Source: a virus. From it: 64,000 nt of DNA. This document shows positions 1,020 through 46,685 of the stretch, one piece after another. The notes below the pieces were generated by a model, which was not told where the DNA came from, did no database searches, and worked only from the letters and a program-made list of their open reading frames with translations. The stretch spans positions 113,949 through 177,948 of the IMG/VR virus record IMGVR_UViG_3300002026_002465. One strand, written 5' to 3'. The first letter of the stretch is position 1. Every line of letters begins with the position of its first letter. The position numbers and the translations under genes were made by a program.

Positions 1020-3775
1020 TGGGAAAAAGAACTTATTTTGATACGCCAGTAAAAATTTATACACTCTTGACAGAACATCCTATTATGAGTAATTTATTAT
1101 CAGAATTTAATATTGATAGTGATAATGTTAAGAAAGTTGTTATAACACTTTTTTCTCTTGATAATGAAATTACATCTACTCCATTAAATAATCTTTATTT
1201 TTATTCTGATATAATAGAAGCAATTGCTACTGATTATGGTTTTGATGCTCCTTATGATGATCAAGTATCTGCTAGTGGAACAAAATTATATGAGTTATTA
1301 AATTTTACTCTTTATTTATATAAATTTGGAACAGTTGATAATTTTTATGAACAAAATATATTAGATTTTTTACCAGAATATGATAGAGATTATATTAAAA
1401 GTGAACCAAAATTAAAACTCTTGTATGAATCAATTGGAAGAAAGCTTGATTCAATAGAACTTTCATTATCTAAGATGAAGGATATTTATGATATTGATGA
1501 TGTTCCTGAACAACTATTAGATTATTTAGGACAAAATATTGGATATGAAAAAGAAGATTACACCCTCCAAAATGTTTCATTTAGAGAGTTATTAAAAAAT
1601 ATAATTGAAATTTATAAAATAAAGGGAACTAATTATTCATTCTCTTTCTTTTTCAAATTTCTTGGTTTTGAAATAGCATTAAAAGAATTCTTTTTTAATC
1701 ATGATGTTTCAAATCCTGAAGGTTTTCCAGGAATAGAATCTAATAAAGTTGAATATTATTTAACTACAATTAATCCTATAAAAGATATAACAAATAATAA
1801 ACCAGCAAAATTTTTAAATAAAATAAAAAACATTAATGACTGGGATATTGAAATGAAAAGCCTTGAAGAAAAAGGTTGTATAAATTCTACAAAATATATG
1901 CTTGGATTTGAACCTTTTAATAATAGTAAAGATAATCCAAAATGGCACTCAAATCCATGGACTTATTTTAAAACAAATCTTATTGAATATAATTTATCAC
2001 AACTATCATCAAATTTAAATCTTACAGCAAGTGATAATGATACTATTAGAAAGTATGTAAAGTTTTTATCTCCAACTTATTTATTTACTTGGATAAATGT
2101 AAATCTATCTCCATGGATTGAACAAATTAATATTATTGTTGATTCTACAAAAGATTGGAATATATCAATAACTAATAACCTTGGTGATGTTAGACCAACA
2201 CCGTCACCATGGCCTTTTGGTTTAACTAAAAAAACAAATCAAGATCCTGGATTTAATGGTTTTAATAATGATGGAAAGTATTATGATCATGAACCATTAA
2301 ATGAAATATTAAAAGTATATAAACCTGGAGGAGAAACACTTACATTTAGTGTTAGTAATAATTTAAATCTTGGTGGTGTTGATTCAATTGGAACAACATT
2401 AAAAAGAAATGGTGTTTATGTTAGACAACCAGGAAACCCAAAATATATATCAAATATAACTCATAAGGGTGATAGAAAAATATCCTTTGACTTTATGGGA
2501 ATACAAGTAAAAGATTATATTAATATGAATAACCTTGTAACAGTAAATTATTATTCAGAATTGCCACAAAGTATTATTGATGATTCTGTTTATTTTGTAA
2601 CATTTAATCAAGGTAATTATCTTTCTGGTTATTATAGGTTTAATTCTTTAACAGGATGGGTTTATATTGAAACAGAAGACTATTCATATAGATCTTATCC
2701 ATCTACACCCGTAAAATCATTTCCAAATGATAATCAAATAATCTCAAATGGTAATTATTTACAACTATCATGGGAAGAAATTAAAGGTGCAGAACAATAT
2801 TGGATTCAAGTTTCAAAAGATTCAAAATTTAATAACTTAATAATAAATGATAAAACACTGACAACAAATTTTTTTACAAGTAATTATTTATTAAGTAACA
2901 ATAGATATTATTGGAAAATAAAAGTAAAAAACTCTGCTACTTTTCCAAATCTTCCTAAACAAAATATATTAAATTATCCAACTTTTGAACAAATAAACCC
3001 AGATAATTTTATTTGGACTCCATGGTCTAATAACTGGAAATTCACATTAAAAAGTCTTCCATTTCCTTATAATAATGAAATTATAAATGAAGAAACATTA
3101 TTCGTTAAAATAGATAATGATTTAACAACTTTTAATATTTCTTGGCCAAACATTCCTGGAGCATCTAAATATAAGATCCAAGTATTAGAAAGCAAACCAT
3201 TTGTTTGGATAAAAAAGGATCTTGAATGGGTTCAATCTTTTTCAAACTTAATGGAAAAAGAAATAGATGATGTTTGTTACGTTAAAGATGAACAAAAATC
3301 TTATAAATATACAAGCACCCAAAAAGACTGGGTTATTGTTGAAAAACCAGAATCTTTTAGTGTAATAGATCATTTTATAGATTTACCAAAAACTGAACAA
3401 AGACTTGGTGATTCTTGGCTTGTTATAGATAATGGTCAATATTATACTTGGACCTCTATTCAAAATGTATGGCAAGAATATACTCCTTTATATAATATGA
3501 TTGGAAATGTCAAAGATAATAATACTCTCTATCAAATAAATACTAGTCTTTATTCTGTTTGCTTTTTATTAGCAGAAAATGAATTTTATGAATATGTTCC
3601 AATAGAAAATACTTCTCAATATATTTCATCAGTATATGACACAATTGTTAAAGATAATTCTTTAAGTGTATCATTAAAAAATGGAACATATTATTGGAGA
3701 TATAGTAAATATAATTCTATAAATGATATAATGGTTTGGAGTGATATTTATAGTTTTACAATTAATTTTGCATAG
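1019..3775 (+). CDS. Baseplate wedge protein (P2 gpI / T4 gp7-like N-terminal domain) with FnIII-like C-terminal modules
   Basis: Motif DIDDVPEQLLDYLGQNIGY...RELLKNIIEIYKIKGT...FFKFLGF typical of gpI-like wedge proteins; LSWEEIKGAEQYWIQV and RYYWKIK are FnIII-like. Confidence 0.7.
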   Translation: MGKRTYFDTPVKIYTLLTEHPIMSNLLSEFNIDSDNVKKVVITLFSLDNEITSTPLNNLYFYSDIIEAIATDYGFDAPYDDQVSASGTKLYELLNFTLYLYKFGTVDNFYEQNILDFLPEYDRDYIKSEPKLKLLYESIGRKLDSIELSLSKMKDIYDIDDVPEQLLDYLGQNIGYEKEDYTLQNVSFRELLKNIIEIYKIKGTNYSFSFFFKFLGFEIALKEFFFNHDVSNPEGFPGIESNKVEYYLTTINPIKDITNNKPAKFLNKIKNINDWDIEMKSLEEKGCINSTKYMLGFEPFNNSKDNPKWHSNPWTYFKTNLIEYNLSQLSSNLNLTASDNDTIRKYVKFLSPTYLFTWINVNLSPWIEQINIIVDSTKDWNISITNNLGDVRPTPSPWPFGLTKKTNQDPGFNGFNNDGKYYDHEPLNEILKVYKPGGETLTFSVSNNLNLGGVDSIGTTLKRNGVYVRQPGNPKYISNITHKGDRKISFDFMGIQVKDYINMNNLVTVNYYSELPQSIIDDSVYFVTFNQGNYLSGYYRFNSLTGWVYIETEDYSYRSYPSTPVKSFPNDNQIISNGNYLQLSWEEIKGAEQYWIQVSKDSKFNNLIINDKTLTTNFFTSNYLLSNNRYYWKIKVKNSATFPNLPKQNILNYPTFEQINPDNFIWTPWSNNWKFTLKSLPFPYNNEIINEETLFVKIDNDLTTFNISWPNIPGASKYKIQVLESKPFVWIKKDLEWVQSFSNLMEKEIDDVCYVKDEQKSYKYTSTQKDWVIVEKPESFSVIDHFIDLPKTEQRLGDSWLVIDNGQYYTWTSIQNVWQEYTPLYNMIGNVKDNNTLYQINTSLYSVCFLLAENEFYEYVPIENTSQYISSVYDTIVKDNSLSVSLKNGTYYWRYSKYNSINDIMVWSDIYSFTINFA

Positions 3776-5468: not shown

Positions 5469-5469
5469 C

Positions 5470-5526
5470 TGTTCATATTATGAACAGGCTGTTTTCTTGG
5501 TGAACTCTACTGTTCACCTGGTGAAC
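5470..5526. promoter_or_regulatory. Cluster of GTTCAY-N3-RTGAAC palindromes (operator-like)
   Basis: GTTCAT-ATT-ATGAAC 5471-5485, GTGAAC 5500-5505, GTTCAC-CTG-GTGAAC 5512-5526 in intergenic DNA. Confidence 0.45.
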
Positions 5527-5572
5527 GTATAAATATAGTCTTATAAAAATAAGTACTACTAAGGAGGATATA

Positions 5573-5779
5573 ATGCCAAAAATTAGATTTGGAGAATACT
5601 TAGTTCAAAAACAAATAATTACCCAAGAACAGTTAAATAAAGCTTTACTTATTCAAAAAGAAGATACTTTAGAAGGTTATCATAGAATGATAGGATTTGT
5701 TCTTTTAAATGAATATAAATTATTTTCAAAAGATGGTTTATATGATTTATTAAAGGAATGGGAAAATGGAAAAGATTGA
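5573..5779 (+). CDS. Stand-alone MshEN-like (PilB/GspE N-terminal, c-di-GMP-binding type) micro-protein
   Basis: RFGEYLVQKQIITQEQLNKALLIQ matches the 24-residue MshEN motif RLGxxLLxxGLIxxxxLxxxLxxQ; second half-motif MIGFVLL; SD AAGGAGG. Confidence 0.7.
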   Translation: MPKIRFGEYLVQKQIITQEQLNKALLIQKEDTLEGYHRMIGFVLLNEYKLFSKDGLYDLLKEWENGKD

Positions 5780-6023
5780 AGATTTTTTATATCAACCATT
5801 TGTTGGAAATGGTGGTTCAAATTTTGTGATAATTCGTGGATCTATTAATGGCCAGTTTTATGGACTATTATATGACATAGGTAAAATATACAAACTTACA
5901 TTTTTAAATGAATTAAATGCCAAATATTTTATAAAAACAAATAAAGGTGTGCCTACAGACAAAATACCAGAAGAGACTATGAGATTATTTGTTAAAAGAG
6001 CAATGGATAATGGAAACACATAA
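5766..6023 (+). CDS. Hypothetical protein
   Basis: 85-aa ORF overlapping both neighbours. Confidence 0.6.
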   Translation: MEKIEDFLYQPFVGNGGSNFVIIRGSINGQFYGLLYDIGKIYKLTFLNELNAKYFIKTNKGVPTDKIPEETMRLFVKRAMDNGNT

Positions 6024-6588
6024 TCATGCAGTTTTAAAAGTTAAAGCATTAGAGTGGTTATATTTAAATGCAAAATGTCAATATGTTACAACTGAATTAA
6101 AAATAGGAAGATATATTTTCGATGTTGTAGGATGTGATGGTAGTAGAGTATTTATAATTGAAGCAAAACAAGATATAAATGATTATATAAGAGATTTAAA
6201 CAATCCTAATGAAATAAAAGAAAATATACTTTTATTAAAAAAAGAATTTTTAATAGATAATAATAAAGAGAAATATGTTGATAATGTAAAAAAAGAAAGA
6301 GAAAAAAGTATAAAATTTTTAGATGATAGTTTATTAAAGCTTTCTTCACATAGATATTTAATAACTCCAGATGGAATGTTAACAGAGGAAAACACTCCAC
6401 AAGGATGGGGATTATTAAATGAGGAACCAAGAGTTATAAAAAAATGTGATGGAAACAGAATAGACAAGAAAATAGCTGAAAAGATTATTCGAGATATTTG
6501 TGTGAGAAACACCAAGATATATCTAGAAATGAAAGAAGGAGTAGAATTTGGAAAACAAGTAACCTTTCCAGATTTAATGTTATTATGA
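6010..6588 (+). CDS. PD-(D/E)XK nuclease-fold protein (MmcB-like)
   Basis: E...FDVVG...IIEAK catalytic pattern; HRYLITP...PQGWGLL C-terminal motif. Confidence 0.6.
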   Translation: METHNHAVLKVKALEWLYLNAKCQYVTTELKIGRYIFDVVGCDGSRVFIIEAKQDINDYIRDLNNPNEIKENILLLKKEFLIDNNKEKYVDNVKKEREKSIKFLDDSLLKLSSHRYLITPDGMLTEENTPQGWGLLNEEPRVIKKCDGNRIDKKIAEKIIRDICVRNTKIYLEMKEGVEFGKQVTFPDLMLL

Positions 6589-7236: not shown

Positions 7237-7626
7237 ATGAAATTTAACAATCTAATACAAGAAGCATCTCAAGAAATAGTCACTAATTTTAATTCTTTTT
7301 ATGATGAAATAAAAACTAAAAAAGAAATTTTAAATTATGGTGATTTACGTATGCGTGAGATATATCCATCTAATAATAATTACTCAATGCAATTTCAATT
7401 AAAACCAAAATATTCAAATTTAGAAAATAGTGATGAAAATATAAAATATATAATTAGATTATTAAAAGATATAGCAGTTAAATATAATCAAGATGCAAAA
7501 GTCAAAAGAGAAATTGCAATAAACAATCAAGCTGTTATAAAGATAATATTTAAGGATATTCAACAGGGAGAAAACATGAATAAAGAAAATAATATAGGTT
7601 TAAATAGACTTGGGGGTACAATTTGA
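7237..7626 (+). CDS. Hypothetical, candidate internal head protein
   Basis: N-terminus MKFNNLIQE resembles a T4 capsid-targeting leader. Confidence 0.55.
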   Translation: MKFNNLIQEASQEIVTNFNSFYDEIKTKKEILNYGDLRMREIYPSNNNYSMQFQLKPKYSNLENSDENIKYIIRLLKDIAVKYNQDAKVKREIAINNQAVIKIIFKDIQQGENMNKENNIGLNRLGGTI

Positions 7627-10600
7627 GTGTTATCAAACGTTGGTCAACAGGTTCAATAGGTAATGAATATCCAGATCACAAGGAAAGAAATAATCCAAAT
7701 ACAAAGGGTCTTTCTTATGAAGGCTCTGAAATAGTAGGTCCTGGTATTGAAGGATATATTGAAGAAGATGAAGTTCTTGCTTCTAGTGATAATAGACCAT
7801 TAAAAAACTTGGTTGAAAATGATATTATTCTTGATAAAAATATTTCAGATGTTGCATCTGAAGTTGATCATGGAATTTTCAAAAATAGATATAATGAATT
7901 TAAATTAGATATTTTAACACAAGATTATTTAAATGATCCTGAAATTCAATCAACAGAATTTCTTACAACACTATTAAGAATTAACTCAGGATCTTCTATT
8001 ATTAATGGTAAAGTTACTCGTATTGGTAATCAAAAAATATTATACTTTATGAGAACAACTGACAGTTCAATTATTTTCCCTGATTATGAAAATAACACAG
8101 ATTCAATTTTAATTGAAATAAATGATGATAATTATTTTAATGATTATAATGTTGTATATACTACAATATCAGATACTCTTCCTAATAATTTTGAATCATA
8201 TGAAGTAAAAATAACAAATAAATCAACAATAAATACTTCTGTTGAAGACAGAGTATTAATATATAAAATATATAGAGATTGGGAAGATATAACTCCATTA
8301 AAAGCTGACTCTAAAGAAGCAAAAAATGAAATAATTAATTTCCAAAATGATATTAACTTTGGTAAAACTAGTGATGGTTATTGGTTAAAATCTCCAACAG
8401 GTCTTGGAGACCCAATAAAAGGAACGTTTGTTACTGATGTAAAAATAAAAAAAGATATTGAAATAAAAGACAAATTTCTAGAAAAAGATTTATTTACAAT
8501 AAATACAACAACTGGAAAAAAAGAATACGAAATCATAACAGATGGTATTTTCTTTAATGATATTCAATGGTTTATAGCTGATGAATTAATAGATAAATCA
8601 GCTGATATTCAAGATATTTATGTTGATGAAAACAACAATATATATTTTATTATTAGATCAAAAACATCAACACAATTATATTATAAGGCAGCAACATCAA
8701 CTCAGCTTGTTGCAAAACCAATAAGAAATGTAGGTGAACCAAATACTATTTCAGTTAATACTAGATTAAAACAAATTAAAAATTATTTGTTTGTATATGG
8801 CACGAATGGTTTCATAAGAGCAGTTCAATTAGATAGCAATAATTATATAGAAACTCCAGCACTTGTATTTAGTAATATTCAAACAACACAAGAAATAACT
8901 TCTATATATGTTTGGAATGATCAAATTTGGATTGCAGGTGAAAATACATTATGGCATTCTAATCAAACATTATCTTCAATAAGTAATTATTCTACAATAT
9001 TTCCAACCTGGACATTTACAGAATTAAAATTGAATGATGTTGTAAAAGATTTATCAGGTCAACCAATTGTTAAAAAAATAACAACTCTTGAAAGAACAAA
9101 AGGAAATATTATTGTTGATACTGCTATTAATACTAATATTTTTAACTTGGTAAAAAATGGTTCTTTTGAACAGGGAACACCAGGACAAATACCAACAAAT
9201 TGGAATCTTACTGATGATCTTTCTGAATTAAATGCAGAATTATTATCAACATTTGAAATGACTCAATCATCTGGAAGTTCAAACACAGATAGATGGGGAA
9301 ATTATAAAGGTATATTAAAACTTGGATCTGGTGTTACAAGAGCTACAGTTTATCAAGATTTTATATTAGAAGAAAATTCTCAAAATAAAATATATAACTT
9401 TTCTGTTTTCTTGAAATCAGGAGTTCCACAAGGTTCAACTATAAAAATAGCTGAATATAATAGTGACAATGAAATTGTAACAAGTATTGATAGTGGTCTT
9501 TTAAATACTTCAAGTGAATCTTGGGTTATTGATAATACAAATGTTAACACATGGATTAGACCTGAAATTGCATTTAGAATTGCAAATAATAATTCAAAAT
9601 ATTTAAGATTTAGTATTAACTGTGAAAGTGCAAGTCCTCTTCAAATAGATGGTGTTCAATTAGAGGAAATTAATAACTCTGGTATTGAAATAACAAATAT
9701 CACATGTGCTGCAGATATTGATGGATCACTTTCAGGAAAATATTTATTAATAAGTTCACCTTTACATAATTATTATGCTTGGATAAATGTTGACATGGAT
9801 TTGAATGGTCAAGGTGATTCTATAGATCCAAAGTTATTAGAAACTTTTGATGGAAGTGGTATATCTAAATATCCTGTTTTATTAAATAAAACAGGAATTC
9901 AAGTTCTTATTTCTAAAAATTCTCATGCAGATGTTGTTGCAGAAAAAGTTGCAAAGGCTATAAATTTTGTTTCAGATCTTGTTGCATATAGAATACAAAA
10001 CACAATTCAAGTTCAAGTAAGTAGTGAAATACCAGGTCAAGTTGCTGATGCTAGTATTGCTACATTAGGATCAGTTGGATTTTTTATAGACATTGTAGTT
10101 CAAGGTCTTTATAAGGCTTCTCAATATATAGAAAATTATGAATATTTGTTTATTGGTTTTGAAAAATTTGAATCTAATAGAACAGATCAACCTTTCGCTT
10201 TTATTGATATTGCAAACCCAACAGGACCACAAGCAATTAAATATGTATTAGGAAAATATGGTAATGTAATGAGAATCAATGCTGCCATACATGATGATTC
10301 AAATAGAATGTATGTAACAGATGATAAGAGAATTTATACTTTAACATTCCTTAATAACTATAATATGTATGATCGTTTTACAATGGTTGATATTAGTAAT
10401 AAAAATTCAAATGAATTAGATTTTAGTTCTAATATTTATAAGTTTGAAACAATAGCAAAATTTAATAATAGAATTATGTTTGGTGGAACAGTTGATAATC
10501 GTGTTATTAAAGCAAAATATGGAATAGATGATAAAAAAGATCATACTATAGAATTTGTTGATGCTCTAGATGGATTTAAGAGTTTTAATAGTTTATTTGG

Positions 10601-13600
10601 TGAAACTGTATTTGTTCATTCTAATGGTATTGATAATTCAACAATAGAATTTAAAAGAACAAAAAGTTGTTATGAAAAAATATCAACAACATCTGATTCA
10701 AATATTGGATATTATGAACCTGGAGAATTTTATACTTTTAAAATATTAATTGATGGTCAAGAAGATAAAATAATAAAAATACTTTCTCCAAGTTGGAATA
10801 AAGGTCCATGGACTATACAAAAAATATATGAACAAATTAAATCAAACTATAGTGGTAGTCTAATAGACTGGTTAAATCCTGAAGGTAAAGAATCTGTTGT
10901 TAAAACATTGGATTGGACAAATCCTGAATCATCTTCAATTAAAACTGATGGTTTTTATTCAATTGGAAAACAAGATTTAACAAGACATGTTAGAGGAAAT
11001 ATCCATAAAATATTTATACCAGCAAATCAAAATAAAACATTTTATATTATTCGTGGAAAACAAATATTCCAATCAAAATTTGATCCAAATGTTTTAAAAG
11101 ATGATAATGGAAAATATCCTGGTGTTATAGCTCCTAGAGGAACTGTTTTATCTTATGATCTCCTTCCAAAAAACCTCGATGCAACTAGTATAAACTTTGT
11201 TTGGTTTGTTCAAGATAAAGGATATTATAAATGGACTCAAGATGGATGGGAAGAAGTTCAATATTATACAAAATGGGATATATATTCTGAAGGTATTAAA
11301 CTAACAAAATATAAACATATTAATGATATTGAAAAAACTTTTGGTGATGCTTCTAATAATAAAGTATGGGTTGATCTTCCAATAGAACCTGGTTATAATT
11401 TATTAAAAGGATCTGTTAGAGTAAAAACAAATTTTATTGCAGAAGTTGGATTTACAGAAGGTGAAGATTATTTTATTGATTATGATAATAATAAAATGAT
11501 AAGATCAGATACAACAAATATGTTGTTAAATTCTGAATTTTCTTATGCAGATACATATATTAATTTAAATAATCTTGATTATAAAGGTGAAGTTTCAAGC
11601 ACAGGATCATTACCAACAGTTGGTGTTTCAATTGGTGATGCTTATAAAGTTGGAAGCGATTATTATAGATGTAAAGAGTTACCAATATCTGGATTTAGTT
11701 CATGGATAAAATTCTCAAATGAAATTGTTCCATTAAACTGGAAATATTATGCTCAAAATGATACAGGTTTTGAAACAATTTTAAGAAAAACACGAGATGC
11801 ATATGATAATAGAAATGATGTAGCAGAATTTATAGTAAAATCAGTATCTTCAGGAAGTGAAGTTGGTGTATTATATCAAGTTGTTGATATTGATTATGCT
11901 CAAGATGTATATACATTCTCCGTTGATTTGAAGGCTTATAATTATTCAAAAGTAATAATAAGAATATCAGAATGTGATAACTCAAATATTTCTAGTTTTG
12001 GATATAACAAACTAGGAAATTCATTTACTGATTTAGTTTATAAATCATCTAGATTAGATTATCAAATAGGAAATGCTAATAACTCTACATCTGTTGATAG
12101 TTATGATAAGTGGAATAGAGTTGTATTGTCACATGAATTAAAAGATGCAAGAACAACAAAACTTAGAGTTGAAATTTATTCTTTAAAGAATAATCAACTT
12201 TATGTAGATAAGGCTCAACTTGAAAAAAATGCTTCTCAAACACCATTTGTTGAGACTGCAAGATTATCAAGAATTGATCCTAATATGCATGTTTGGATTG
12301 ATTATGTAGAATATACAACTGCAATAAAAGGAACTGATTACAAGTTTGATTTAGCAACAAGAAAAATAAAAATGATAGAAGACATATCAGATAATGAATA
12401 TTTTTATTTTAATTACAAATATAATAAAATATTTAATCCATATGATTATGGAAACTCAAAACCAGTTGCTGCTGTTAATTATGATCCTAGAGATGATTAC
12501 TTTATATTAAAATCAGAAGGTCATATATGGGCAATAAATCAAATGTTCGCTATGATTTCATTAGAAACAGAAGATCCTCTCCTTGTTTCATATAATTATC
12601 ACTATCCACGCGTTGATCAAATTAAAATAAGAAATCAACCTGATAGATTTGGTAATTTTATTTATGTTGTAAAGGGCGAAGCAGCTTATGACAACCCATA
12701 TAAACCAAATGACATTGGATCTGGTTATGGAATAAATGGATCAAAACAATATTATAATGGTGTTGATATTAGTGAAATAGAAGATTCTGTAAATAATGAT
12801 ATTCTTTATGAAATAAACGTTGTTGATAATAATTATCAAATAAATGATATTTATGATAGACGTATTTATATTGATGCTAGAGACAATCTTAATTATAATA
12901 TTTCTCTTTTACCTGAAACACTTGCATACTTCCCATTTAAAAAAGATTTTAACTCAACAAATGGTTTAACACCATTGAATTTTATTCAAAATAGTAAAAT
13001 TATTCCAATAATTAAAAACTATTCTATATTACAACTTGTTGAAGTTGGAGCTTGGAGAAATGGATATCAGTTAGGATTAAGAACACAATTTACTTATCCA
13101 GGAACTTCATTCTCTGTTTTCGTAGATCCTATAGATGGAAATGATACAAATACTGGTAAATCAGAAAACAGTGCATTTAAAACTGTTCAACGAGCATTAG
13201 ATGGAGATGCACTATATAGTAATAGCACTGATGATTATGTAACAAACATTATTATTACAAAACCATCAACAATTAAAGAAAATATAGAAATCAATAAACC
13301 ATTTACAGTTTCAATTGTTGCAAAATCATATTGCTATTGGGTTGGTTCAATTCAAAACTTGACAGAATGTAATATTCAAGGTGTTTGGTTTAAAAACACT
13401 GCAATATATCCATTTAATAAAATAAGTTTTTATTATTGTACTTTTGATAATACATCAATAAACTGTATATCACCACAAAATATAAGTTTATATAATTGTG
13501 AAGCCACAAACAATCATAATCCTCTATTAAGAGTTAAAAACACTCTCTATCCATCACCATTCAAATTCCCATATATGAGAATGTCAGAAAGAGATGATGG

Positions 13601-16600
13601 AATAATAGGATATCCTGATAGTGTTGCTACAAGCAATAATGAATCTATTGCACCTGGTGACGTCTTTAATACACCACAATTAACAGCCTCAACATATATT
13701 TTCAAGAATTGTTTAATTTATGGTTCAACAGATCATATTATAAAATTCGATCCATCACCTGCATGGACTGGAAGTTTTGGTTTTGATTTCTGTACAATAG
13801 CAGATAACGTTGGAATGTTTTCAACACCAAAATATAATCTATCAATAAATTATTCAAACTCAATTATTTCAAATAATAGAGAAATAATTTCACAAACAGA
13901 TGATGCAATTATTAAAAAAGTTTTTAATTGTAATTCATCAATAAACTTTGATACTTGCTATATTGATTTCCCAAATAAATCAGATGAAGAAGGATCTTCA
14001 AATCTTTGGAATAATTTAAGTGGTGAATTATTAGGAAGAGAATCATGTATTTATAGTAAAAATGTTGGTGGATCTCCTCAATTTTTAGGTGATAATGATT
14101 ATCACTTAAAGTCAATAGCAAAAGGATCAACAACAGATTCTCCAGTTCTTGATAAAGGAACTGGCGGTATAGATCTTGGATGCTATACAGAAACAAGACA
14201 ACAAACAGAACAAAACATTCCAAAAAAATTAAAAAACTATACGGCCTATATTGATGAAGCAATTCATTATGCAATGGTAATTAACTCTGAAAAAATAACT
14301 GTAACACTTGAATTTAAACCATCAGGAACAGTTACAAAGAGTGGTATATTATTTGATACAAGAACATCAGATGATGACGTTGATTATATTGTTCTTGCCT
14401 ATAATAACAATAATGATAATGATCATAATCTTGAACAAAGTGAAGGTAACTTACAAAGTAATCCTTATAGATTTAGAGTAATAGTTGCCAACAAAGAAAA
14501 ATCATACTCAATAATATCACCAATTCAAATAACCACTGATGAAGAATTTCAAATTTGGCACAGAATTTCTTTCACTATAAACTATGAAAAGATAATAAAT
14601 ACAAAACCAAAATATGATGAATATAATAAAATTCAAAACATTATTATATTATATCATAACAAACAAGAATCAATAGAATCTTTTGTAAAGTATGACTTGT
14701 CAAGATATACAAGTGGTGAATTAATTTCTGGCAGTGGAAATGATGGATTCAATTCTTGGAATTATAATGATATCACAAAATATATAACTATTGGTGCAGA
14801 TTATAAAAATACTGAAACACTAAGAATGACTGGTTATTATGATGAATTAAGAATTGACAATAGATTCATAGACAGAAAACAATTTGAATTATGGAATGTA
14901 AAAAAAGTTCAATTCAATGATCCTGTTGCCTATGTTAATCAAATTCCATTAACAAAATCTTTTAACCCTCGTACTCTTCAAGAATATTGGTCATTAAAAG
15001 ATATATATGATGTTGGATCTAAAGGAAATAAATTCTTAGAAAATACATCTAAAAGAATGACATATGAAGATGGATACCCTGCATGGTTTATTGGAAATAC
15101 AACTAATAACATAATTGAAAATTCTAACTTCTCTGGAAACTATAATGCTCTCCTAGAAACTGAATCTTTAGTTTTTGATACACCAATTGTTTTAACATCA
15201 AACTGGCATATATCAACATCAGGATCAAGAAATACAATTGATGAAGCTGGATTTGATATTACAATATTAGACACATCATCTCCTCAATATTCTGATGCAG
15301 CAGGCTATCAAGATCTAGGATTAAATATAACAGATACCACAGTAACATCTAGCTTAGGTGCTAAAACATTCCCATTTGATGTTAAAATTAATAATACTCT
15401 ATATCACAAGAATCTTATCCTCCAAGCAGATCCTGGATATCAAGAATTATCATTAATAAGCGGTGTGGCAAACTCTTTAATAGTTCCAGGAATAAATCCA
15501 AATGGAACAGAACCAGAGTATAATCTTAATTATAAATTATATGATAGTAATAATCCAACTGGTATTGATAAAATAATTCCATTATCTATATCTGGTGTAA
15601 ATGAAATAACACACATTACAACAGTTGGTTCATTAACAGAACTTAAAAACAAATATTTTACTCTATCATCAACTGGTGACAGTCATAGATATTATGTTTG
15701 GTATGCACAAGAAGAAGGAACTACAAATAAACCAACATTAAATTCTCACGATCCTGCTGGTCAATTACAAAAAATAGAATTGACAGTTACTGCGCCTATA
15801 CCAAGAGAACAAATAAATAGTGGCAAGTATGAGGGTAAAGGATTTACTATTTATGATAATGCAGGAGTTGCTAGAAATGTTTATTTTGATGAATCATCAA
15901 CACTTATACCAGTTGTAACAATGCCACCATTATGGGTAGGAACTGATCTAACAAAAGTAATAAGAGTATCTTTAACAACAACTTCTGCTAATGAAGGAAT
16001 GCTTACACCATACATAGCTGAAAAAATTCAAGAAGCTATTAATCCTGTTGGACAATGGACTGTTACATTAAATGGAAGTACTTTAACAATAGAGAATAAA
16101 GAAAAAGTTTCTTTGTCAGACGTAAACTTAACAATTGGAAACTCTAGTGACTTATTAAGTGTTAATAAAATAACAGAAGGTTGTGCACCAATAGCTGGTT
16201 TTGATACAAGAACTGGAATTATGGCTCTTATTTCTTCAACAGATGATCAAGATGCTATTTTATTAAAAACAAAAAATGCATTTACTTCAGCTGTTAACAC
16301 AGATATTATGACTGCTGAAAAAATTAATGGTAATGTTGAAGAAATAGAAATAACCTTTAATTCAGGTGTCAAGAATGATTATGATAGTAAATATTTCACA
16401 TTAACAAGCAATGATCAGTTTGGATTTAGTTCAAATTATTATGTTTGGTTTAATGCAGGAATAGATGGTGATAAACAAGTAACAAGAGTAACTTGTAATG
16501 CAGATGAAACATTAGGTGGAGACCCAAGCAAAATATTAAACAACAAATATTTTACTCTTCCTACAAATTCAGGTGAAAATTATTTCTGGTATAATGCTAA

Positions 16601-19600
16601 TGGACTTGGAAGAGATCCAGGACAAAACCACTTAGCAATAAAAGAGGAATTTACTCTTTCATTTGGTGATGATCTAAAAGACAAGAATTCTTATCATGGA
16701 AAGTATTTTACGTTATCAACACCAATTGAAAATTATTGTGTTTATTATACAGTAAATGGTGTAGATGTTGATCTCGTATTAAATGAAGTGCTTGATACTT
16801 ATCAGAAAATACGAATCGATATTGGTTCTGATGTTGGTGGTCTTGATCAAAGATCAACAATCATGACTCAAACAAAAAATGTTCTTAGAGCTCAAGTATC
16901 AGGTTTTGTAGATAGCTCTATTTCAATCCAAGGTAATGTTATGAGCTTTTCAATTCCAGAAGGAAAAACAAGAGCAATATCAACTACTGGTAGTTTTAGT
17001 GATGATATAACTTATACAAGAATTACAATTGGAATGAATACACAGACTAAAACATATCAAGGCGCAGGACTTGGATATGTTATTGCAATATCAGAAAATG
17101 ATAGTGCTAACGCCATTACAGTTGCAACTCAAAGTGTAATTAATAATACTGGTAAATATGATATTGTTGCTAATACAAATATATTAACAATAACAAATAA
17201 AGTTGTTGGCAAGTGTAGTGTTTTTGAAAGTAATACTGGGTTTACAATAATAAGTGTTATTGGTGGTGTAAATTCAACAACAAATCCAAATATATTAAAT
17301 TCTATAGGTGTTGAGATTGATATAACAGATACGTTAAATGCTGTTGGAGTTGCAAGTGCTGTGAATTCTGTTATTAATAACTTGAGTGATTTTAATTCAA
17401 CAATTTTAGTAGATACAACAAAAATAAAGATTGTAACAACAGATGATGAAAAGAACTTCGTAAATCCATCTATTGGAAATTTAGGAGAAACAACAACACT
17501 TGATATTATAAATCATGGAAAGTTGCCATATGTTAAATTTACTAATACTGAAAATGGAGTTGTAACAACAAAGCCAACTTTCTCATTTAATGGAACATAT
17601 GAAATTACTCAAACTGGTATTTTTGCTAATACAGGTTTTGGAAACTTGATAACAATATTAAATCAAAAAACTTTAAATGATTTAACATGGTCAATTATTG
17701 GTGGAAAACTAAGAGCAACAACAGTATCACAAGGAGTTGAATCAACAATTGAAATAATAAATACTAATTTGACAAATGACTTAATAAAAGTTATTGGTTT
17801 TAATATTTCTCCAAAGGTTTATGGACTTCCTGTTGATGATGATTTGGAAACAGTTTTATATGAATTGAATAAGATTGATTCTAGAATACATTGGGAGTTT
17901 ATTACAAAAACAAATGGCAAGAAAGATATTAGAGCTATATTGACATATAAGGGTCAAGAGTCTTTAATAAAGTTTGAAGATACTGGTAATGTTCTTGATT
18001 TATTTACAAAACTTGGTGTTGTATATAATAATATAACTTCATTTGATGGATTCTCAAAAATAACATTATACAATCAATATCAAGCTGAAGAATTAGTCAA
18101 GCAAGTCTTTTCAAAATTAAGACAAGAAAAAAAAACTGATATAGATTGTAATATAAGAAATCAAAAATTAATTATATTTACTGATGATTTTATTACTAAT
18201 ACTATTACTGTTGACTTTAAAAATGATTATGCAAAACTTTTCCCAGCAAGAAATCAAATTACAAGTGTTACAGCTGTTGTTGGAAATAAAAACCATGGTG
18301 TTTGGAATGTTAATTTAACAAATATTACTCCTGTTGATGATACAGTTTCATATAACTATGATAAAGAATATAATAAATATTCTGAAAATTCATTGGTTGT
18401 TGAAAAGAAATCTAGTGATGCTTTAAACATTAATATATCACAATATATAATGTTAAAAAAAGAAACAGATTATACATTATCAACTTATGTTTATTCAGAA
18501 GATTATCTCTCATCAAATAATATTAAATTTAAGTTTACAAATGAAGAACTTGATTGGGATAATATTGAAAGACTTGATGGTAACTGGTGGAGATTAGTAT
18601 ACTCATTTAAAAATGAATATGCTGGACAATATCATATTGGTCTTGTTGTTATAAAAACAAATAGAATGTATATTGATGCTGTTCAATTTGAAGAAAATAA
18701 ATTTATGACTCCGTTTGTGCTTAGTTCAAAAAATGATATTGGTAAGTTGGGAATAAATAAGTCATTATTAAATAAAAAAAGAGGAACATTATTCTTTAAG
18801 TTTAAACCTTATTTTGATTACTACAAACCAACTATTACTAATCCAAGGGTAATAATAAACATGCCTACAATAGATGATAATATTGTAGATCAATCTCTTG
18901 GTTTTAAAGTAATTTATTATTTTGATCCAATTAAAAATAGAGGAATATTTGAGTTTAGTATAAATAATGAAGATTCATCTTCTTGGAAGCTTGAAGCAAT
19001 AGAATCATTCTTTAATCAATGGCACTCTATTGGTTTTGTTTATGATTATATTAACGATAGATTTATTTATTGGTTTGATTATTTTAATAATATAATTGAC
19101 TCTCCATTTAATAATTATGAATGGGCAAATCTTTGGATTGGTCATAATGGACTTGATTCTTCTAGTATGTCAGCCGATATAGTTGTTAAAGATATAGTTA
19201 TACAAAATTATACAACAACAGACTCTGAAATTCTTAATTGGAATACAACATATGAATTCTTTAATACTTCACTTTTTAACTCAACAATACAAGAAGTTAA
19301 AAATGAGTTGTTAGGATTAAAACAAGGAACATTAAGTAACTCTGATTTATCTCTAGATTTACAAAATCAACTCGCTATTATTGAAAACAGAGTTGATGAA
19401 TATGACTCTAATGAAGTTGATAACTTGAACTATATTACAAAGTTATCAAGTTTCATAGGGTATCCAAAACCATTAAGTGATTCTTATTCTGAAATTCCTT
19501 CAGATCAAGGAAATCATGAAAACAGAATTAAAGGTGTTGAAATAACTACAACTTTCTTGAATGGAAAAAACAGTGTTTTTGAAGATAGATTAAATTATGC

Positions 19601-21209
19601 TCTATCAGAAGTAGATAATGTTAATAACTCTCTTGGAAATATTTTAGCTGAAATAAATACAGAGAAAAATACAAGATCTACAGAAGATCAAGCAATAAAA
19701 AATCTTTATGCTTCAACATCAATTAATAAAGGTGCTTCTCTTGTTGGTATATATGATGTTAATGGAAGATATTCAGCAATTAACGTTGAGGATATATTAC
19801 AAGAAATTGCAGGTGGTGGTAGAACAACTGAAAGCTTGAAATCATTAAAAGATGATATATCAAGTCTTGAATTATTGATTGGACAAAATGATGAAGATTT
19901 TGAATATATTAAAGATGGCAACACACAACTTTTAACAAGAGTATTATCTCAATCAGCTGGATATAATGTTTTTGATATAAAAAATGATTTAACTACATTA
20001 GAAAATGATGTTTCTCTTATTAGAGATAATAACAAAAAAGCAAAACTTTCTTCTCAAAAAATAATTGTTAATTTTACTGATAGTGGCTCATTTGTTCCAC
20101 TATTACCAGAAACAGTATATTCATTTATTGTTAATGGCAAAGAATTTAGTATAATAACACCAGAAGAAAATGTAACTTGGAATAGTTTAATTACAAACTT
20201 TTTACCAAATGCTACAAGTGCCGATAATGAGTTATTATCACTAAAACATAATATACTCAGAACATCAGATAATAATATTTCATTCAATATTCTAATTGAA
20301 AACAAGGCTGATATTGTAGAAGGTTTTACTGTTGATATACTTCCTGGAATAACAGAAATAGATTTGTTAATATCATTAAGTGCTGGTGTTGGTATTGCTA
20401 CAAGCACACAAATTAATTTTATACCTTTAACAATGAATAATGCTTCAATGTTTGAGAAAATTAATACAGAAATAACTGATAGACAAAATTCAATTTCTGC
20501 AATACGAAATGATCTAAGTAATGATACTTTAGTTGCTCCTGGAGCTTCATTAATTGGAATTAATTCTGCTGGTATATTTACATCAACAACAGTTCAACAA
20601 GCTCTAGAAGAAATTTCTGGCATAGAGAGAAACTCAAGTATGACAATAGCAGGAAACTATAATAACATTCAAGGTATGTTATCTAGTATATCTACATTAC
20701 AATCAAATGTTTCTAATTCTTCTTCAAACATTGTTGGTATTAAAGAAAATATACAATTAATGAAAGATGGTAATCTTGGAATAACTTGGGATGGCGTGCA
20801 AACAATAAAACCAAATCTTATGGATTTATCATCAAGACTTGGAATTGCTGAAGATGATATTATATCATCAAACACTGCAATTGGTGTTAATGCTCTTGGT
20901 CTTGCAAATACAAATCAAACATTAAACAATGTAAGTAATAATCTAACAACAGAAATTACAAATAGAGTAAATGGTGATAGTAATATCATGCAACAACTTG
21001 CAAGCTCTTCTGTTAATAAAGGTGCTTCTTTAATTGCTATACAAGATGTTGCTGGAAAATATACAGCAACAACAGTTGAAGGTGCTTTAGCAGAAGTTGA
21101 TACAAAGCTTGCAGCCTTAGCAGGTGCACTATCATGGCAATCTCCAGTTGCTAGTCTATTATTATTACCAACAACTGGAAATATAATAGGAAATGCAAGA
21201 ACAGTATAG
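7623..21209 (+). CDS. Giant virion fibre/adhesin protein, N-terminal 4,528 aa (CBM-like jelly rolls, beta-helix, LamG-like, repeats)
   Basis: TTG start; NLVKNGSFE...IDGVQLEE CBM-like modules; VFVDPIDGNDTNTG...AFKTVQRAL beta-helix opener; five KYFTL...YYVW-type repeats; GASL(V/I)...VExALxE fibre repeats. Confidence 0.8.
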   Translation: MSVIKRWSTGSIGNEYPDHKERNNPNTKGLSYEGSEIVGPGIEGYIEEDEVLASSDNRPLKNLVENDIILDKNISDVASEVDHGIFKNRYNEFKLDILTQDYLNDPEIQSTEFLTTLLRINSGSSIINGKVTRIGNQKILYFMRTTDSSIIFPDYENNTDSILIEINDDNYFNDYNVVYTTISDTLPNNFESYEVKITNKSTINTSVEDRVLIYKIYRDWEDITPLKADSKEAKNEIINFQNDINFGKTSDGYWLKSPTGLGDPIKGTFVTDVKIKKDIEIKDKFLEKDLFTINTTTGKKEYEIITDGIFFNDIQWFIADELIDKSADIQDIYVDENNNIYFIIRSKTSTQLYYKAATSTQLVAKPIRNVGEPNTISVNTRLKQIKNYLFVYGTNGFIRAVQLDSNNYIETPALVFSNIQTTQEITSIYVWNDQIWIAGENTLWHSNQTLSSISNYSTIFPTWTFTELKLNDVVKDLSGQPIVKKITTLERTKGNIIVDTAINTNIFNLVKNGSFEQGTPGQIPTNWNLTDDLSELNAELLSTFEMTQSSGSSNTDRWGNYKGILKLGSGVTRATVYQDFILEENSQNKIYNFSVFLKSGVPQGSTIKIAEYNSDNEIVTSIDSGLLNTSSESWVIDNTNVNTWIRPEIAFRIANNNSKYLRFSINCESASPLQIDGVQLEEINNSGIEITNITCAADIDGSLSGKYLLISSPLHNYYAWINVDMDLNGQGDSIDPKLLETFDGSGISKYPVLLNKTGIQVLISKNSHADVVAEKVAKAINFVSDLVAYRIQNTIQVQVSSEIPGQVADASIATLGSVGFFIDIVVQGLYKASQYIENYEYLFIGFEKFESNRTDQPFAFIDIANPTGPQAIKYVLGKYGNVMRINAAIHDDSNRMYVTDDKRIYTLTFLNNYNMYDRFTMVDISNKNSNELDFSSNIYKFETIAKFNNRIMFGGTVDNRVIKAKYGIDDKKDHTIEFVDALDGFKSFNSLFGETVFVHSNGIDNSTIEFKRTKSCYEKISTTSDSNIGYYEPGEFYTFKILIDGQEDKIIKILSPSWNKGPWTIQKIYEQIKSNYSGSLIDWLNPEGKESVVKTLDWTNPESSSIKTDGFYSIGKQDLTRHVRGNIHKIFIPANQNKTFYIIRGKQIFQSKFDPNVLKDDNGKYPGVIAPRGTVLSYDLLPKNLDATSINFVWFVQDKGYYKWTQDGWEEVQYYTKWDIYSEGIKLTKYKHINDIEKTFGDASNNKVWVDLPIEPGYNLLKGSVRVKTNFIAEVGFTEGEDYFIDYDNNKMIRSDTTNMLLNSEFSYADTYINLNNLDYKGEVSSTGSLPTVGVSIGDAYKVGSDYYRCKELPISGFSSWIKFSNEIVPLNWKYYAQNDTGFETILRKTRDAYDNRNDVAEFIVKSVSSGSEVGVLYQVVDIDYAQDVYTFSVDLKAYNYSKVIIRISECDNSNISSFGYNKLGNSFTDLVYKSSRLDYQIGNANNSTSVDSYDKWNRVVLSHELKDARTTKLRVEIYSLKNNQLYVDKAQLEKNASQTPFVETARLSRIDPNMHVWIDYVEYTTAIKGTDYKFDLATRKIKMIEDISDNEYFYFNYKYNKIFNPYDYGNSKPVAAVNYDPRDDYFILKSEGHIWAINQMFAMISLETEDPLLVSYNYHYPRVDQIKIRNQPDRFGNFIYVVKGEAAYDNPYKPNDIGSGYGINGSKQYYNGVDISEIEDSVNNDILYEINVVDNNYQINDIYDRRIYIDARDNLNYNISLLPETLAYFPFKKDFNSTNGLTPLNFIQNSKIIPIIKNYSILQLVEVGAWRNGYQLGLRTQFTYPGTSFSVFVDPIDGNDTNTGKSENSAFKTVQRALDGDALYSNSTDDYVTNIIITKPSTIKENIEINKPFTVSIVAKSYCYWVGSIQNLTECNIQGVWFKNTAIYPFNKISFYYCTFDNTSINCISPQNISLYNCEATNNHNPLLRVKNTLYPSPFKFPYMRMSERDDGIIGYPDSVATSNNESIAPGDVFNTPQLTASTYIFKNCLIYGSTDHIIKFDPSPAWTGSFGFDFCTIADNVGMFSTPKYNLSINYSNSIISNNREIISQTDDAIIKKVFNCNSSINFDTCYIDFPNKSDEEGSSNLWNNLSGELLGRESCIYSKNVGGSPQFLGDNDYHLKSIAKGSTTDSPVLDKGTGGIDLGCYTETRQQTEQNIPKKLKNYTAYIDEAIHYAMVINSEKITVTLEFKPSGTVTKSGILFDTRTSDDDVDYIVLAYNNNNDNDHNLEQSEGNLQSNPYRFRVIVANKEKSYSIISPIQITTDEEFQIWHRISFTINYEKIINTKPKYDEYNKIQNIIILYHNKQESIESFVKYDLSRYTSGELISGSGNDGFNSWNYNDITKYITIGADYKNTETLRMTGYYDELRIDNRFIDRKQFELWNVKKVQFNDPVAYVNQIPLTKSFNPRTLQEYWSLKDIYDVGSKGNKFLENTSKRMTYEDGYPAWFIGNTTNNIIENSNFSGNYNALLETESLVFDTPIVLTSNWHISTSGSRNTIDEAGFDITILDTSSPQYSDAAGYQDLGLNITDTTVTSSLGAKTFPFDVKINNTLYHKNLILQADPGYQELSLISGVANSLIVPGINPNGTEPEYNLNYKLYDSNNPTGIDKIIPLSISGVNEITHITTVGSLTELKNKYFTLSSTGDSHRYYVWYAQEEGTTNKPTLNSHDPAGQLQKIELTVTAPIPREQINSGKYEGKGFTIYDNAGVARNVYFDESSTLIPVVTMPPLWVGTDLTKVIRVSLTTTSANEGMLTPYIAEKIQEAINPVGQWTVTLNGSTLTIENKEKVSLSDVNLTIGNSSDLLSVNKITEGCAPIAGFDTRTGIMALISSTDDQDAILLKTKNAFTSAVNTDIMTAEKINGNVEEIEITFNSGVKNDYDSKYFTLTSNDQFGFSSNYYVWFNAGIDGDKQVTRVTCNADETLGGDPSKILNNKYFTLPTNSGENYFWYNANGLGRDPGQNHLAIKEEFTLSFGDDLKDKNSYHGKYFTLSTPIENYCVYYTVNGVDVDLVLNEVLDTYQKIRIDIGSDVGGLDQRSTIMTQTKNVLRAQVSGFVDSSISIQGNVMSFSIPEGKTRAISTTGSFSDDITYTRITIGMNTQTKTYQGAGLGYVIAISENDSANAITVATQSVINNTGKYDIVANTNILTITNKVVGKCSVFESNTGFTIISVIGGVNSTTNPNILNSIGVEIDITDTLNAVGVASAVNSVINNLSDFNSTILVDTTKIKIVTTDDEKNFVNPSIGNLGETTTLDIINHGKLPYVKFTNTENGVVTTKPTFSFNGTYEITQTGIFANTGFGNLITILNQKTLNDLTWSIIGGKLRATTVSQGVESTIEIINTNLTNDLIKVIGFNISPKVYGLPVDDDLETVLYELNKIDSRIHWEFITKTNGKKDIRAILTYKGQESLIKFEDTGNVLDLFTKLGVVYNNITSFDGFSKITLYNQYQAEELVKQVFSKLRQEKKTDIDCNIRNQKLIIFTDDFITNTITVDFKNDYAKLFPARNQITSVTAVVGNKNHGVWNVNLTNITPVDDTVSYNYDKEYNKYSENSLVVEKKSSDALNINISQYIMLKKETDYTLSTYVYSEDYLSSNNIKFKFTNEELDWDNIERLDGNWWRLVYSFKNEYAGQYHIGLVVIKTNRMYIDAVQFEENKFMTPFVLSSKNDIGKLGINKSLLNKKRGTLFFKFKPYFDYYKPTITNPRVIINMPTIDDNIVDQSLGFKVIYYFDPIKNRGIFEFSINNEDSSSWKLEAIESFFNQWHSIGFVYDYINDRFIYWFDYFNNIIDSPFNNYEWANLWIGHNGLDSSSMSADIVVKDIVIQNYTTTDSEILNWNTTYEFFNTSLFNSTIQEVKNELLGLKQGTLSNSDLSLDLQNQLAIIENRVDEYDSNEVDNLNYITKLSSFIGYPKPLSDSYSEIPSDQGNHENRIKGVEITTTFLNGKNSVFEDRLNYALSEVDNVNNSLGNILAEINTEKNTRSTEDQAIKNLYASTSINKGASLVGIYDVNGRYSAINVEDILQEIAGGGRTTESLKSLKDDISSLELLIGQNDEDFEYIKDGNTQLLTRVLSQSAGYNVFDIKNDLTTLENDVSLIRDNNKKAKLSSQKIIVNFTDSGSFVPLLPETVYSFIVNGKEFSIITPEENVTWNSLITNFLPNATSADNELLSLKHNILRTSDNNISFNILIENKADIVEGFTVDILPGITEIDLLISLSAGVGIATSTQINFIPLTMNNASMFEKINTEITDRQNSISAIRNDLSNDTLVAPGASLIGINSAGIFTSTTVQQALEEISGIERNSSMTIAGNYNNIQGMLSSISTLQSNVSNSSSNIVGIKENIQLMKDGNLGITWDGVQTIKPNLMDLSSRLGIAEDDIISSNTAIGVNALGLANTNQTLNNVSNNLTTEITNRVNGDSNIMQQLASSSVNKGASLIAIQDVAGKYTATTVEGALAEVDTKLAALAGALSWQSPVASLLLLPTTGNIIGNARTV

Positions 21210-32340: not shown

Positions 32341-32901
32341 GTGAGTGAATTATATGATATATTCGTGCGAATAAAAGAACTCCTTTATGAAAAGAAATTT
32401 GAAAAATTAGATCTTCCTGAATTAGTCGAATTAATACTAAAAGAAAATAAAACTAAAAAAGATTTAGAAACTCTGAAATCAGTCTATGAATATGTTGTCG
32501 GAATGGAAAAATCTCTTGAAGATTTAGGAACAATAGTTTATGAAATGATGAGTTTTTCAAGTTCTACTTCTATTGTAGAAATAGAAACAAAGGTTAGAGG
32601 TATAGTTTTAACAGTTGATCAATTTATAGATGGTCTTGCTGCTGTTATTAGAGTTGTCAAATTTAGTGAAAGTAAATTAAAACTTAAACAATCATTAGCA
32701 TATTTAAAATCTATTAGAGGTCTAATAATTAATAAAACTAATGAATATAAATTAAAAATAGGAAAGACATCAATAGATTCTGATACATTTTTAAGATTTC
32801 TTACAGATACAATTGATACCTTTTTAAGAGAGGCTTATATAATTCGTATTCTTAAGATAAAAGATGTAATTCAAAAAACTATAGATATAAATCATGATTG
32901 A
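32341..32901 (+). CDS. Hypothetical helical protein
   Basis: GTG start after SD AAGGAG. Confidence 0.6.
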   Translation: MSELYDIFVRIKELLYEKKFEKLDLPELVELILKENKTKKDLETLKSVYEYVVGMEKSLEDLGTIVYEMMSFSSSTSIVEIETKVRGIVLTVDQFIDGLAAVIRVVKFSESKLKLKQSLAYLKSIRGLIINKTNEYKLKIGKTSIDSDTFLRFLTDTIDTFLREAYIIRILKIKDVIQKTIDINHD

Positions 32902-46650: not shown

Positions 46651-46679
46651 TTTAGAGAACTGATAGAGAGGTGTATAAT
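46651..46679 (+). promoter_or_regulatory. sigma70-like promoter TTTAGA-N17-TATAAT
   Basis: ATG 46686 lies 6 nt after the -10 box. Confidence 0.6.
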
Positions 46680-46685
46680 ATGGAT

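Follow-up and report, generated by a model that had tools for sequence, protein, structure and literature searches.

A predicted free-standing MshEN-type N-subdomain of 68 residues, encoded by a phage that also carries its own predicted diguanylate cyclase

Introduction

C-di-GMP is the main switch between the motile and the sessile state of bacteria and controls pili, flagella and surface glycans that are used as receptors by phages. The interference of phages with c-di-GMP known so far is indirect, either via peptides that bind a host cyclase or via dependence on c-di-GMP-activated glycans. There are small c-di-GMP receptors that have no output domain of their own, the single-domain PilZ adaptors, which bind to their target protein in a ligand-dependent manner. 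In the group of MshEN or GSPII domains, which are found in secretion and pilus ATPases, not all members are c-di-GMP binders; PilF GSPII-A and the N-terminal domain of PilB from X. citri, for example, do not bind.

MshEN domains are recognized by the 24-residue motif RLGxx(L/V/I)(L/V/I)xxG(L/V/I)(L/V/I)xxxxLxxxLxxQ, which was used here together with its published relaxed form (PMC5013675). They are specific for c-di-GMP over c-di-AMP and bind cGAMP more weakly (PMC5013675). The isolated subdomain of MshE (residues 1–62) binds c-di-GMP, the N-subdomain being enough for sub-micromolar binding (PMC12002112). The motif tolerates some changes: Lys or Leu is accepted at position 1, GSPII-B with a motif II one residue shorter still binds with 6 nM, and the loss of one Gln lowers the affinity 77- to 158-fold with binding persisting, while an exchange of the Gly for Ala or of the Arg for Ser is harmful (PMC11731258, PMC12002112). 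Verified binders also vary in part of motif II (PMC11731258). That an MshEN domain can read a dedicated local cyclase is known from NfrB of Escherichia coli, a c-di-GMP-activated glycosyltransferase that is needed for phage N4 (PMC8669469). Stand-alone cellular MshEN forms are already named by NCBI; in the literature we found no description of a stand-alone MshEN-N protein or of a phage-encoded MshEN module.

The gene and its orthologues

The window, by which is meant the whole stretch of 64 kb that was analysed, is the final part of a 177,948-bp IMG/VR record (G000), which is labelled a provirus, is estimated to be 74% complete and has a GC content of about 28%. It contains a gene for a protein of 68 amino acids (Table 1), within whose last 14 nucleotides the next gene begins in a different frame. 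Orthologues with 46–64% identity are present in three other AT-rich metagenomic phage contigs: the identity is 64% in a 2.5-kb JGI contig (L002), 56–59% in L006, which is part of a 388-kb, 98%-complete record (G001), and 46–48% in L004 and L005. Because the orthologues are conserved and their pairwise dN/dS values lie between 0.15 and 0.63, the open reading frame is a genuine gene under purifying selection.

A tblastn search of 50,697 GenBank phage records with the 68-residue protein gave no match at E values up to 1, and a megablast search with the first 20 kb of the window gave none either. When IMG/VR was searched with a three-sequence alignment of the family, the sister megaphage G001 was the sole match, and searches with the GGDEF protein described below, or with a GGDEF alignment, again recovered the sister phage alone. 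In public data the clade is therefore a small one. It can be considered T4-like since G001 has a gene for a T4-type Gp23 capsid protein (E 1.4e-71). Cellular relatives of the 68-residue protein are found in many phyla, with identities of at most 55%.

Table 1. Coordinates of the features discussed; plain numbers refer to the window, others to the record or locus given.
Feature	Position	Strand	Remarks
Terminator-like hairpin CTGTTCAT-att-ATGAACAG with T-rich tail	5469..5487	+	Closes the upstream unit
Operator-like inverted repeats GGTGAAC/GTTCACC	5499..5526	+	
Promoter-like box TATAAATA	5528..5535	+	37 nt upstream of ATG; invariant in four phage contigs
Shine-Dalgarno sequence AAGGAGG	5561..5567	+	5 nt before ATG 5573
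Gene for the 68-aa protein (predicted stand-alone MshEN N-subdomain)	5573..5779	+	ATG 5573, 68 codons, own stop codon
Gene for an 85-aa protein, no assigned family	5766..6023	+	Overlaps the 68-aa gene by 14 nt
Gene for a 192-aa protein	6010..6588	+	14-nt overlap with the 85-aa gene; 199 aa if from TTG 5989
Second MshEN-N-like micro-ORF, 58 aa	42462..42638	+	NF053729 E 1e-3 to 2e-3, 17–18 bits
Further copy of the upstream cassette in G000	G000:C1:58453 (L045)	-	
Further copies of the upstream cassette in G001	G001:C1:104277 and 266342 (L046, L047)		
Predicted 2TM-GGDEF diguanylate cyclase of G000, 224 aa	G000:C1:5390-6064 (L010:1309-1983)		Outside the window; GGDEF domain E 8e-46
Orthologous predicted 2TM-GGDEF cyclase of G001	L011:1483-2157	-	46% identity; GGEEF and RxxD
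Predicted REC-HD-GYP phosphodiesterase of G001, 321 aa	L012:1435-2400	-	E 9.5e-35; HD and GYP intact

Family membership and fold

The NCBIfam model NF053729 ("c-di-GMP_motif, MshE-related") describes the N-terminal motif region of 53 residues and has a curated cut-off of 38 bits. The 68-residue protein scores 33.9 bits (E 2e-8), which is below the cut-off, and the HMMER alignment comprises motif I only. Its orthologues score 34.3, 35.4 and 40.0 bits, the highest value being that of P0003, which thus exceeds the cut-off and whose match spans both motifs. The model matches 17 of the 18 sequences in an alignment of the query with 17 relatives. An exhaustive profile search yielded 379 relatives at E values up to 1e-3, among which small stand-alone proteins and arrays with the unit in tandem are frequent. 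Compared with the PDB, a profile built from 12 short relatives finds PilF (2e-10), PilB of the Geobacter type (6e-8), PilF GSPII-B (5e-4) and MshE (9e-4), with matches spanning both motifs (profile positions 6–68).

It should be noted that the Pfam model PF05157 (T2SSE_N, the "MshEN" model) gives no match to the protein at E values below 1. In genuine PilB/GspE proteins this model maps to residues 60–146, which are the alpha/beta C-subdomain following the c-di-GMP motifs, and it is silent on the phage protein because the latter stops where the C-subdomain would start. The PATAN/DUF4388 family (Pfam PF14332) was considered and rejected: the score is 18 bits at a cut-off of 25 and only profile positions 48–88 are involved. 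The signal reflects a shared helical motif, since the same part of the model also matches the motif region of a PilB-type ATPase and of a CheA-like kinase. Families of Tad1-, Tad2- or Acb2-type sponges were found neither among the PDB-wide fold matches nor among the PHROG and Pfam matches of the protein.

An AlphaFold2 (AF2) model computed from 21 sequences has a pLDDT of 90.7 and predicts helices at residues 6–12, 18–34, 40–48 and 53–66, which form a four-helix bundle of two helix-loop-helix repeats; the structures of MshE and PilF in its training set may have contributed to this model. In an earlier AF2 model from two sequences, helix 3 was longer at its N-terminal side and would occlude half-site II, a feature that the 21-sequence model does not have. 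A fold search with VIA-align, which is independent of Foldseek, covered 48,161 PDB representative chains. Rank 1 was c-di-GMP-bound MshE (5htl_B) with a Z score of 9.7 and an rmsd of 2.2 Å over 59 residues at 29% identity, rank 2 was c-di-GMP-bound PilF GSPII-B (8pdk_A; Z 8.3) and rank 3 the GSPII-C region of PilF (Z 7.2), unrelated chains having scores of at most 6.1. The best nine matches in Foldseek are all c-di-GMP-bound MshE or GSPII-B (TMq 0.65–0.75).

Since the profile matches and the fold matches of the AF2 model both lead to MshE and PilF, the 68-residue protein is, by profile and model, a free-standing N-subdomain of the MshEN/GSPII type without an output domain. An earlier note, made from the letters of the window, had claimed a stand-alone MshEN module with a strong Shine-Dalgarno sequence and without an ATPase or effector domain, and it had suggested a prediction of the fold as a check. 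The module is borne out by the agreement of the NF053729 match, despite its score below cut-off, with the PDB profile matches and the AF2 fold, the check placing MshE and the PilF GSPII domains at ranks 1 to 3 of all chains searched; AAGGAGG does precede the start codon at a distance of 5 nt, and the frame is closed by its stop codon with no such domain present. The note had further described the protein as one MshEN unit plus a half-motif. Here the MshEN identity stands and the word "half" has to be given up, because a second, degenerate motif (residues 39–63) makes the protein a whole two-motif N-subdomain.

The predicted c-di-GMP site

Motif I comprises residues 5–28 and fits the relaxed form at 23 of 24 positions, the exception being position 10, which is Gln and not Gly. 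With Phe at position 2, where the strict motif has Leu, it conforms to the relaxed form and not to the strict one. The Arg, the Gly, both Leu and the Gln of the motif are kept. In L002 and L006 the orthologues have Gly at position 10 and agree with the relaxed form at 24 of 24 positions. With position 10 freed, the motif occurs in one real open reading frame of the six-frame translation of the window, the sole other match crossing a stop codon; residue shuffles gave a mean of 0.35 matches.

Motif II is degenerate. It is separated from motif I by a spacer of 10 residues, whereas the canonical second copy follows after 5, and is thus not a canonical motif II. One residue is inserted in the loop between helices 3 and 4, and position 10 is not a Gly. 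At position 1, Met (preceded by Arg38) takes the place of Arg, and at position 24 Trp63 that of Gln. Retained are the Gly at position 3 (Gly41) and the hydrophobic residues at positions 2, 6–7, 11–12, 17 and 21. Across 64 full-length relatives, conservation is highest for the Gly residues of the two motifs that contact the ligand (98–100%) and for the motif I Gln (98%), with the Leu positions coming next; the final position of motif II is usually aromatic in these relatives. Since helix 3 starts at I40 in the 21-sequence AF2 model, the backbone NH of Gly41 is predicted to be free as in the canonical site.

From this we infer a binding mode in which one monomer would clamp one c-di-GMP between two half-sites with the geometry seen in MshE and PilF GSPII-B. 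Half-site I would be formed by R5-F6-G7 together with L21, L25 and Q28, and half-site II by M39-I40-G41 together with L56, L60 and W63. With motif I near-canonical and motif II degenerate, binding of c-di-GMP is plausible, and on balance we lean slightly towards the view that it would occur. The affinity is probably lower than that of MshE and, given the loss of one of the two glutamines that bind phosphate, probably micromolar rather than nanomolar.

The upstream cassette

The intergenic region upstream of the gene is 104 nt long (5469–5572) and contains in this order the hairpin, the inverted repeats with a palindrome, TATAAATA and the Shine-Dalgarno sequence. The hairpin is kept in L002 and L006. 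The palindrome GTTCACC-T-GGTGAAC at 5512–5526 adjoins the promoter-like box. There are two sites of this palindrome in G000 and three in G001, with none for a reversed-pattern control, and for a 20-nt inverted repeat the expectation by chance is 0.04. All four contigs share the palindrome, the TATAAATATA box and a TACTACTA downstream of it without any change.

The box TATAAATA is the consensus of T4 late promoters. As a word it shows no enrichment in the window, where it was found 26 times with 21 expected; the late-promoter reading draws on the conservation of TATAAATA in the four contigs and not on its frequency. The TATAAATA box before the second micro-ORF (Table 1) is not conserved in G001.

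Of the cassette of about 85 nt, with hairpin, palindromes, TATAAATATA, TACTACTA and Shine-Dalgarno sequence, G000 has one further near-verbatim copy and G001 has two. Each extra copy precedes another small operon, and two of these operons include a PD-(D/E)XK-like gene. Judged by its sequence, it looks like a mobile promoter/terminator cassette. Mobile promoter/stem-loop cassettes have been described in T4-type phages, and the cassette found here resembles them. The 68-aa gene is probably transcribed late, from this conserved arrangement of terminator, palindrome and TATAAATA.

Downstream genes and the wider window

The gene for the 85-residue protein has orthologues with the same 14-nt overlap in L002 and L006 and is absent from L004. 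Atlas leads and structure neighbours of this protein are weak and mixed. A PilZ-like identity was considered and rejected. The 192-residue protein is the most conserved neighbour: its orthologues are 66–70% identical, and each of the four contigs has its gene downstream of that for the 68-residue protein; in L004 it follows directly after the 68-aa orthologue. The leads obtained from PHROG and Atlas are DNA repair proteins or proteins like MmcB, and a D...ExK pattern can be read from the sequence, which suggests that the protein is probably an MmcB-like PD-(D/E)XK nuclease. The 68-aa gene is probably co-transcribed with two translationally coupled genes, one for the 85-residue protein and one for the putative nuclease.

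In the sister phages, arrays of one to four small paralogous repeat proteins that are MORN-like (L006:8414-9436 and L002:1505-1774) sit between a 79-aa gene and the nuclease-like gene; the window has none of them. Elsewhere in the window, an open reading frame of 577 codons (46671–48404, + strand) has the full architecture of a eukaryotic-type topoisomerase IB (Topoisom_I_N 2.7e-61, Topoisom_I 3.6e-61, Topo_C_assoc 3e-24), which is unusual for a tailed phage. There are also very large open reading frames in the tail-fibre region, one for 4528 amino acids (7623–21209, + strand) and one for 1684 amino acids (32894–37948, + strand), the latter with PHROG tail-fibre matches.

Phage-encoded cyclase, phosphodiesterase and second micro-ORF

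Both phages encode a 2TM-GGDEF protein, and the sister phage also encodes a REC-HD-GYP protein (Table 1). The GGDEF protein of G000 has two N-terminal transmembrane helices, an intact GGDEF site and, five residues upstream of it, an RxxD inhibitory site; G000 thus apparently has an active diguanylate cyclase of its own. A tRNA-like sequence with a GGTTCGAATCC T-arm can be recognized in L011 at about 2190–2275 (- strand), just upstream of the GGDEF gene of G001. EAL, PilZ and T2SSE domains were found in neither phage record. In three other phage records with a GGDEF domain, those of Bacillus phage G, Acetobacter phage phiAX1 and Pseudomonas phage Y1, the NF053729 motif was not found. Because the two phages that have both a cyclase and an MshEN-like gene are related, their co-occurrence counts as one evolutionary event.

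The 58-residue micro-ORF of the window has the canonical spacer and lacks the glycine of motif I, and its match to NF053729 is far weaker than that of the 68-residue protein. An orthologue of 55% identity is present in G001 (L048:1486-1668, - strand; size range 58–60 amino acids), on which NF053729 is silent.

Cellular relatives

Of the 28 cellular matches that are nearest, about a dozen fall on the N-termini of proteins of 548–600 amino acids. Four of the proteins were scanned, three of them in this size range, and all are T2SSE ATPases. In 2 of 28 cellular loci an MshEN-bearing gene is found directly downstream of a GGDEF gene. One is from Omnitrophota (L031), where a HAMP-GAF-GGDEF gene is followed by that of a 149-residue stand-alone MshEN protein and, further on, by a REC-HD-GYP gene; the other is from Desulfobacterales (L017), where a REC-GGDEF gene is followed by that of an 880-residue PilB-type ATPase with MshEN. 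No clue came from the genes around two stand-alone relatives of cellular origin. In a Candidatus Scalinduaceae metagenome-assembled genome (L022:4428-6521), two to three units resembling the MshEN-N motif lie between the Hpt and the dimerisation domains of a CheA-type histidine kinase (Hpt, H-kinase_dim, HATPase_c, CheW); they may be a c-di-GMP input to chemotaxis.

Possible functions

Since the protein has no output domain, it must act either as a ligand-dependent adaptor on a partner or as a free c-di-GMP buffer. We give about an even chance to the reading that it is a minimal c-di-GMP reader or buffer in a circuit run by the phage, in which the membrane-anchored 2TM-GGDEF cyclase of the phage would be the writer and a REC-HD-GYP phosphodiesterase, seen in the near-complete sister genome, the eraser. 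An adaptor function, as in single-domain PilZ proteins, is slightly favoured over a buffering of the pool made by the phage cyclase; in either case the output is what we infer, the genes being what is observed. The earlier note had guessed at a sponge for c-di-GMP or a protein jamming pilus or secretion motors of the host, which is possible and not the best reading of the data, the apparently active cyclase and the HD-GYP enzyme of the sister phage weighing against it. A sponge or decoy would be an abundant protein that sequesters c-di-GMP of the host, or a related cyclic dinucleotide of its immune system, and so switches off c-di-GMP-dependent responses. Nucleotide sponges are an established strategy of phages, and a small protein without output domain, behind a strong Shine-Dalgarno sequence and a late-type promoter, would be suited to this, all the more as an isolated N-subdomain of MshEN is sufficient for sub-micromolar binding (PMC12002112). 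However, the cyclase of the same phage has its active site and its inhibitory site intact, the sister phage could already remove c-di-GMP with its HD-GYP enzyme, and the predicted affinity is reduced by the change of Gln to Trp. Because the phage would make c-di-GMP and its sister could also degrade it, the removal of host c-di-GMP is unlikely to be the sole purpose of the protein, and because MshEN prefers c-di-GMP over c-di-AMP and cGAMP, a cover against CBASS signals is unlikely, too. Altogether we regard the sponge as rather improbable. A circuit run by the phage is the more economical reading, the cyclase being present in both phages and the HD-GYP enzyme in the sister.

Two further explanations do without a nucleotide. 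The protein could be a mimic of the N-domain of the host ATPases PilB, GspE or MshE, the free bundle occupying a surface of a partner such as PilZ-type adaptors or platform proteins and thereby blocking the assembly of type IV pili or of type II secretion, for example for superinfection exclusion. Phage proteins that halt pilus assembly via PilB or PilZ are known (PlzR, PMC11461919; reviewed in PMC11656802), motif II is degenerate, the nearest cellular matches are often the N-termini of proteins of ATPase size, those scanned being T2SSE ATPases, and the structural neighbours include the N-domain of X. citri PilB, which was solved with PilZ (Z 5.9), and XpsE-N (Z 5.8). The best matches in structure and sequence are, however, c-di-GMP binders and not the non-binding members, it is the Gly and Gln in contact with the ligand that do not vary, and the phage's own cyclase and phosphodiesterase would be left unexplained; a mimic is therefore unlikely in our opinion. 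In the other explanation the MshEN-N fold is merely a scaffold and the protein is a small helical regulator unrelated to c-di-GMP, acting as chaperone, inhibitor or specificity factor for the 85-residue protein or the MmcB-like nuclease. The three genes with their 14-nt overlaps fit this, as do the nuclease-like gene downstream in all four contigs and the other small operons behind the same cassette, two of which have a different PD-(D/E)XK-like gene. But adjacency is weak evidence because the contigs are syntenic relatives, and the conservation of the ligand-contacting residues would have no explanation, so that we consider such a regulator quite improbable.

If the circuit run by the phage is accepted, it can be extended to a doubtful but consequential possibility: the T4-like megaphage clade would have a complete c-di-GMP circuit with the 2TM-GGDEF writer, the REC-HD-GYP eraser and one or two minimal readers, and the 68-residue protein, as the smallest natural c-di-GMP receptor known, would time or gate a late function (e.g., that of the co-transcribed nuclease) or help to reprogram the host surface according to the c-di-GMP level. 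A phage bringing its own writer, eraser and reader would represent a different level of control. The protein would then define the minimal natural MshEN binding module, which would be useful for structural work, as a compact biosensor and as a c-di-GMP trap. Should it not bind nucleotides, it would still be a candidate for mimicry of the regulatory N-domain found in secretion and pilus ATPases.

Comparison with known systems

The closest relative in structure is the N-subdomain of MshE from Vibrio cholerae (PDB 5HTL; Wang et al. 2016, PMC5013675), which is likewise a four-helix bundle with two helix-turn-helix half-sites. The phage protein keeps the R, G, L, L and Q of motif I. It differs from MshE in lacking the C-subdomain (PF05157) and the ATPase, in the spacer of 10 instead of 5 residues, in the insertion in motif II and its Trp end, and in being encoded by a phage. 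GSPII-B and GSPII-C of PilF from Thermus thermophilus (PDB 8PDK, 6F8L; PMC11731258) are the second-best structural match and the best profile match. Both indicate that a first residue other than Arg is compatible with binding, GSPII-B having Lys/Leu and GSPII-C the start K-P-L-G, which resembles the R-M-I-G of the phage protein (PMC11731258). GSPII-B also indicates that a change in the length of motif II is tolerated (PMC11731258). Both PilF domains, however, keep both glutamines and are located within an ATPase chain of 913 residues (6f8l), whereas the phage protein is free-standing. The C-terminal MshEN of NfrB from E. coli (PMC8669469) gives a weak but consistent NCBIfam match in motif I (E 2e-4 to 4e-3). 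NfrB is a host protein with a glycosyltransferase as output, whereas here cyclase and putative reader are both phage-borne.

The single-domain PilZ adaptors are a functional analogue only, fold and binding motif being unrelated to those of the phage protein. Phage nucleotide sponges and PlzR (PMC11461919) are likewise small phage proteins directed against nucleotide signalling or pilus assembly of the host; no similarity to them in sequence or fold was found, and there is no MshEN module among them, nor is any of them known to use an MshEN motif for c-di-GMP binding. Enzymes of cyclic dinucleotide metabolism from phages are already public, namely the HD-GYP phosphodiesterases of jumbo phages (Iyer et al. 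2021, PMC7824862) and the GGDEF protein gp350 of Bacillus phage G. These records are without an MshEN-type reader, whereas in the phages described here a predicted writer is accompanied by one or two candidate readers and, in the sister phage, by a predicted eraser. The MshEN domain itself is known, and new is its minimal N-subdomain, borne by a phage and paired with a phage cyclase.
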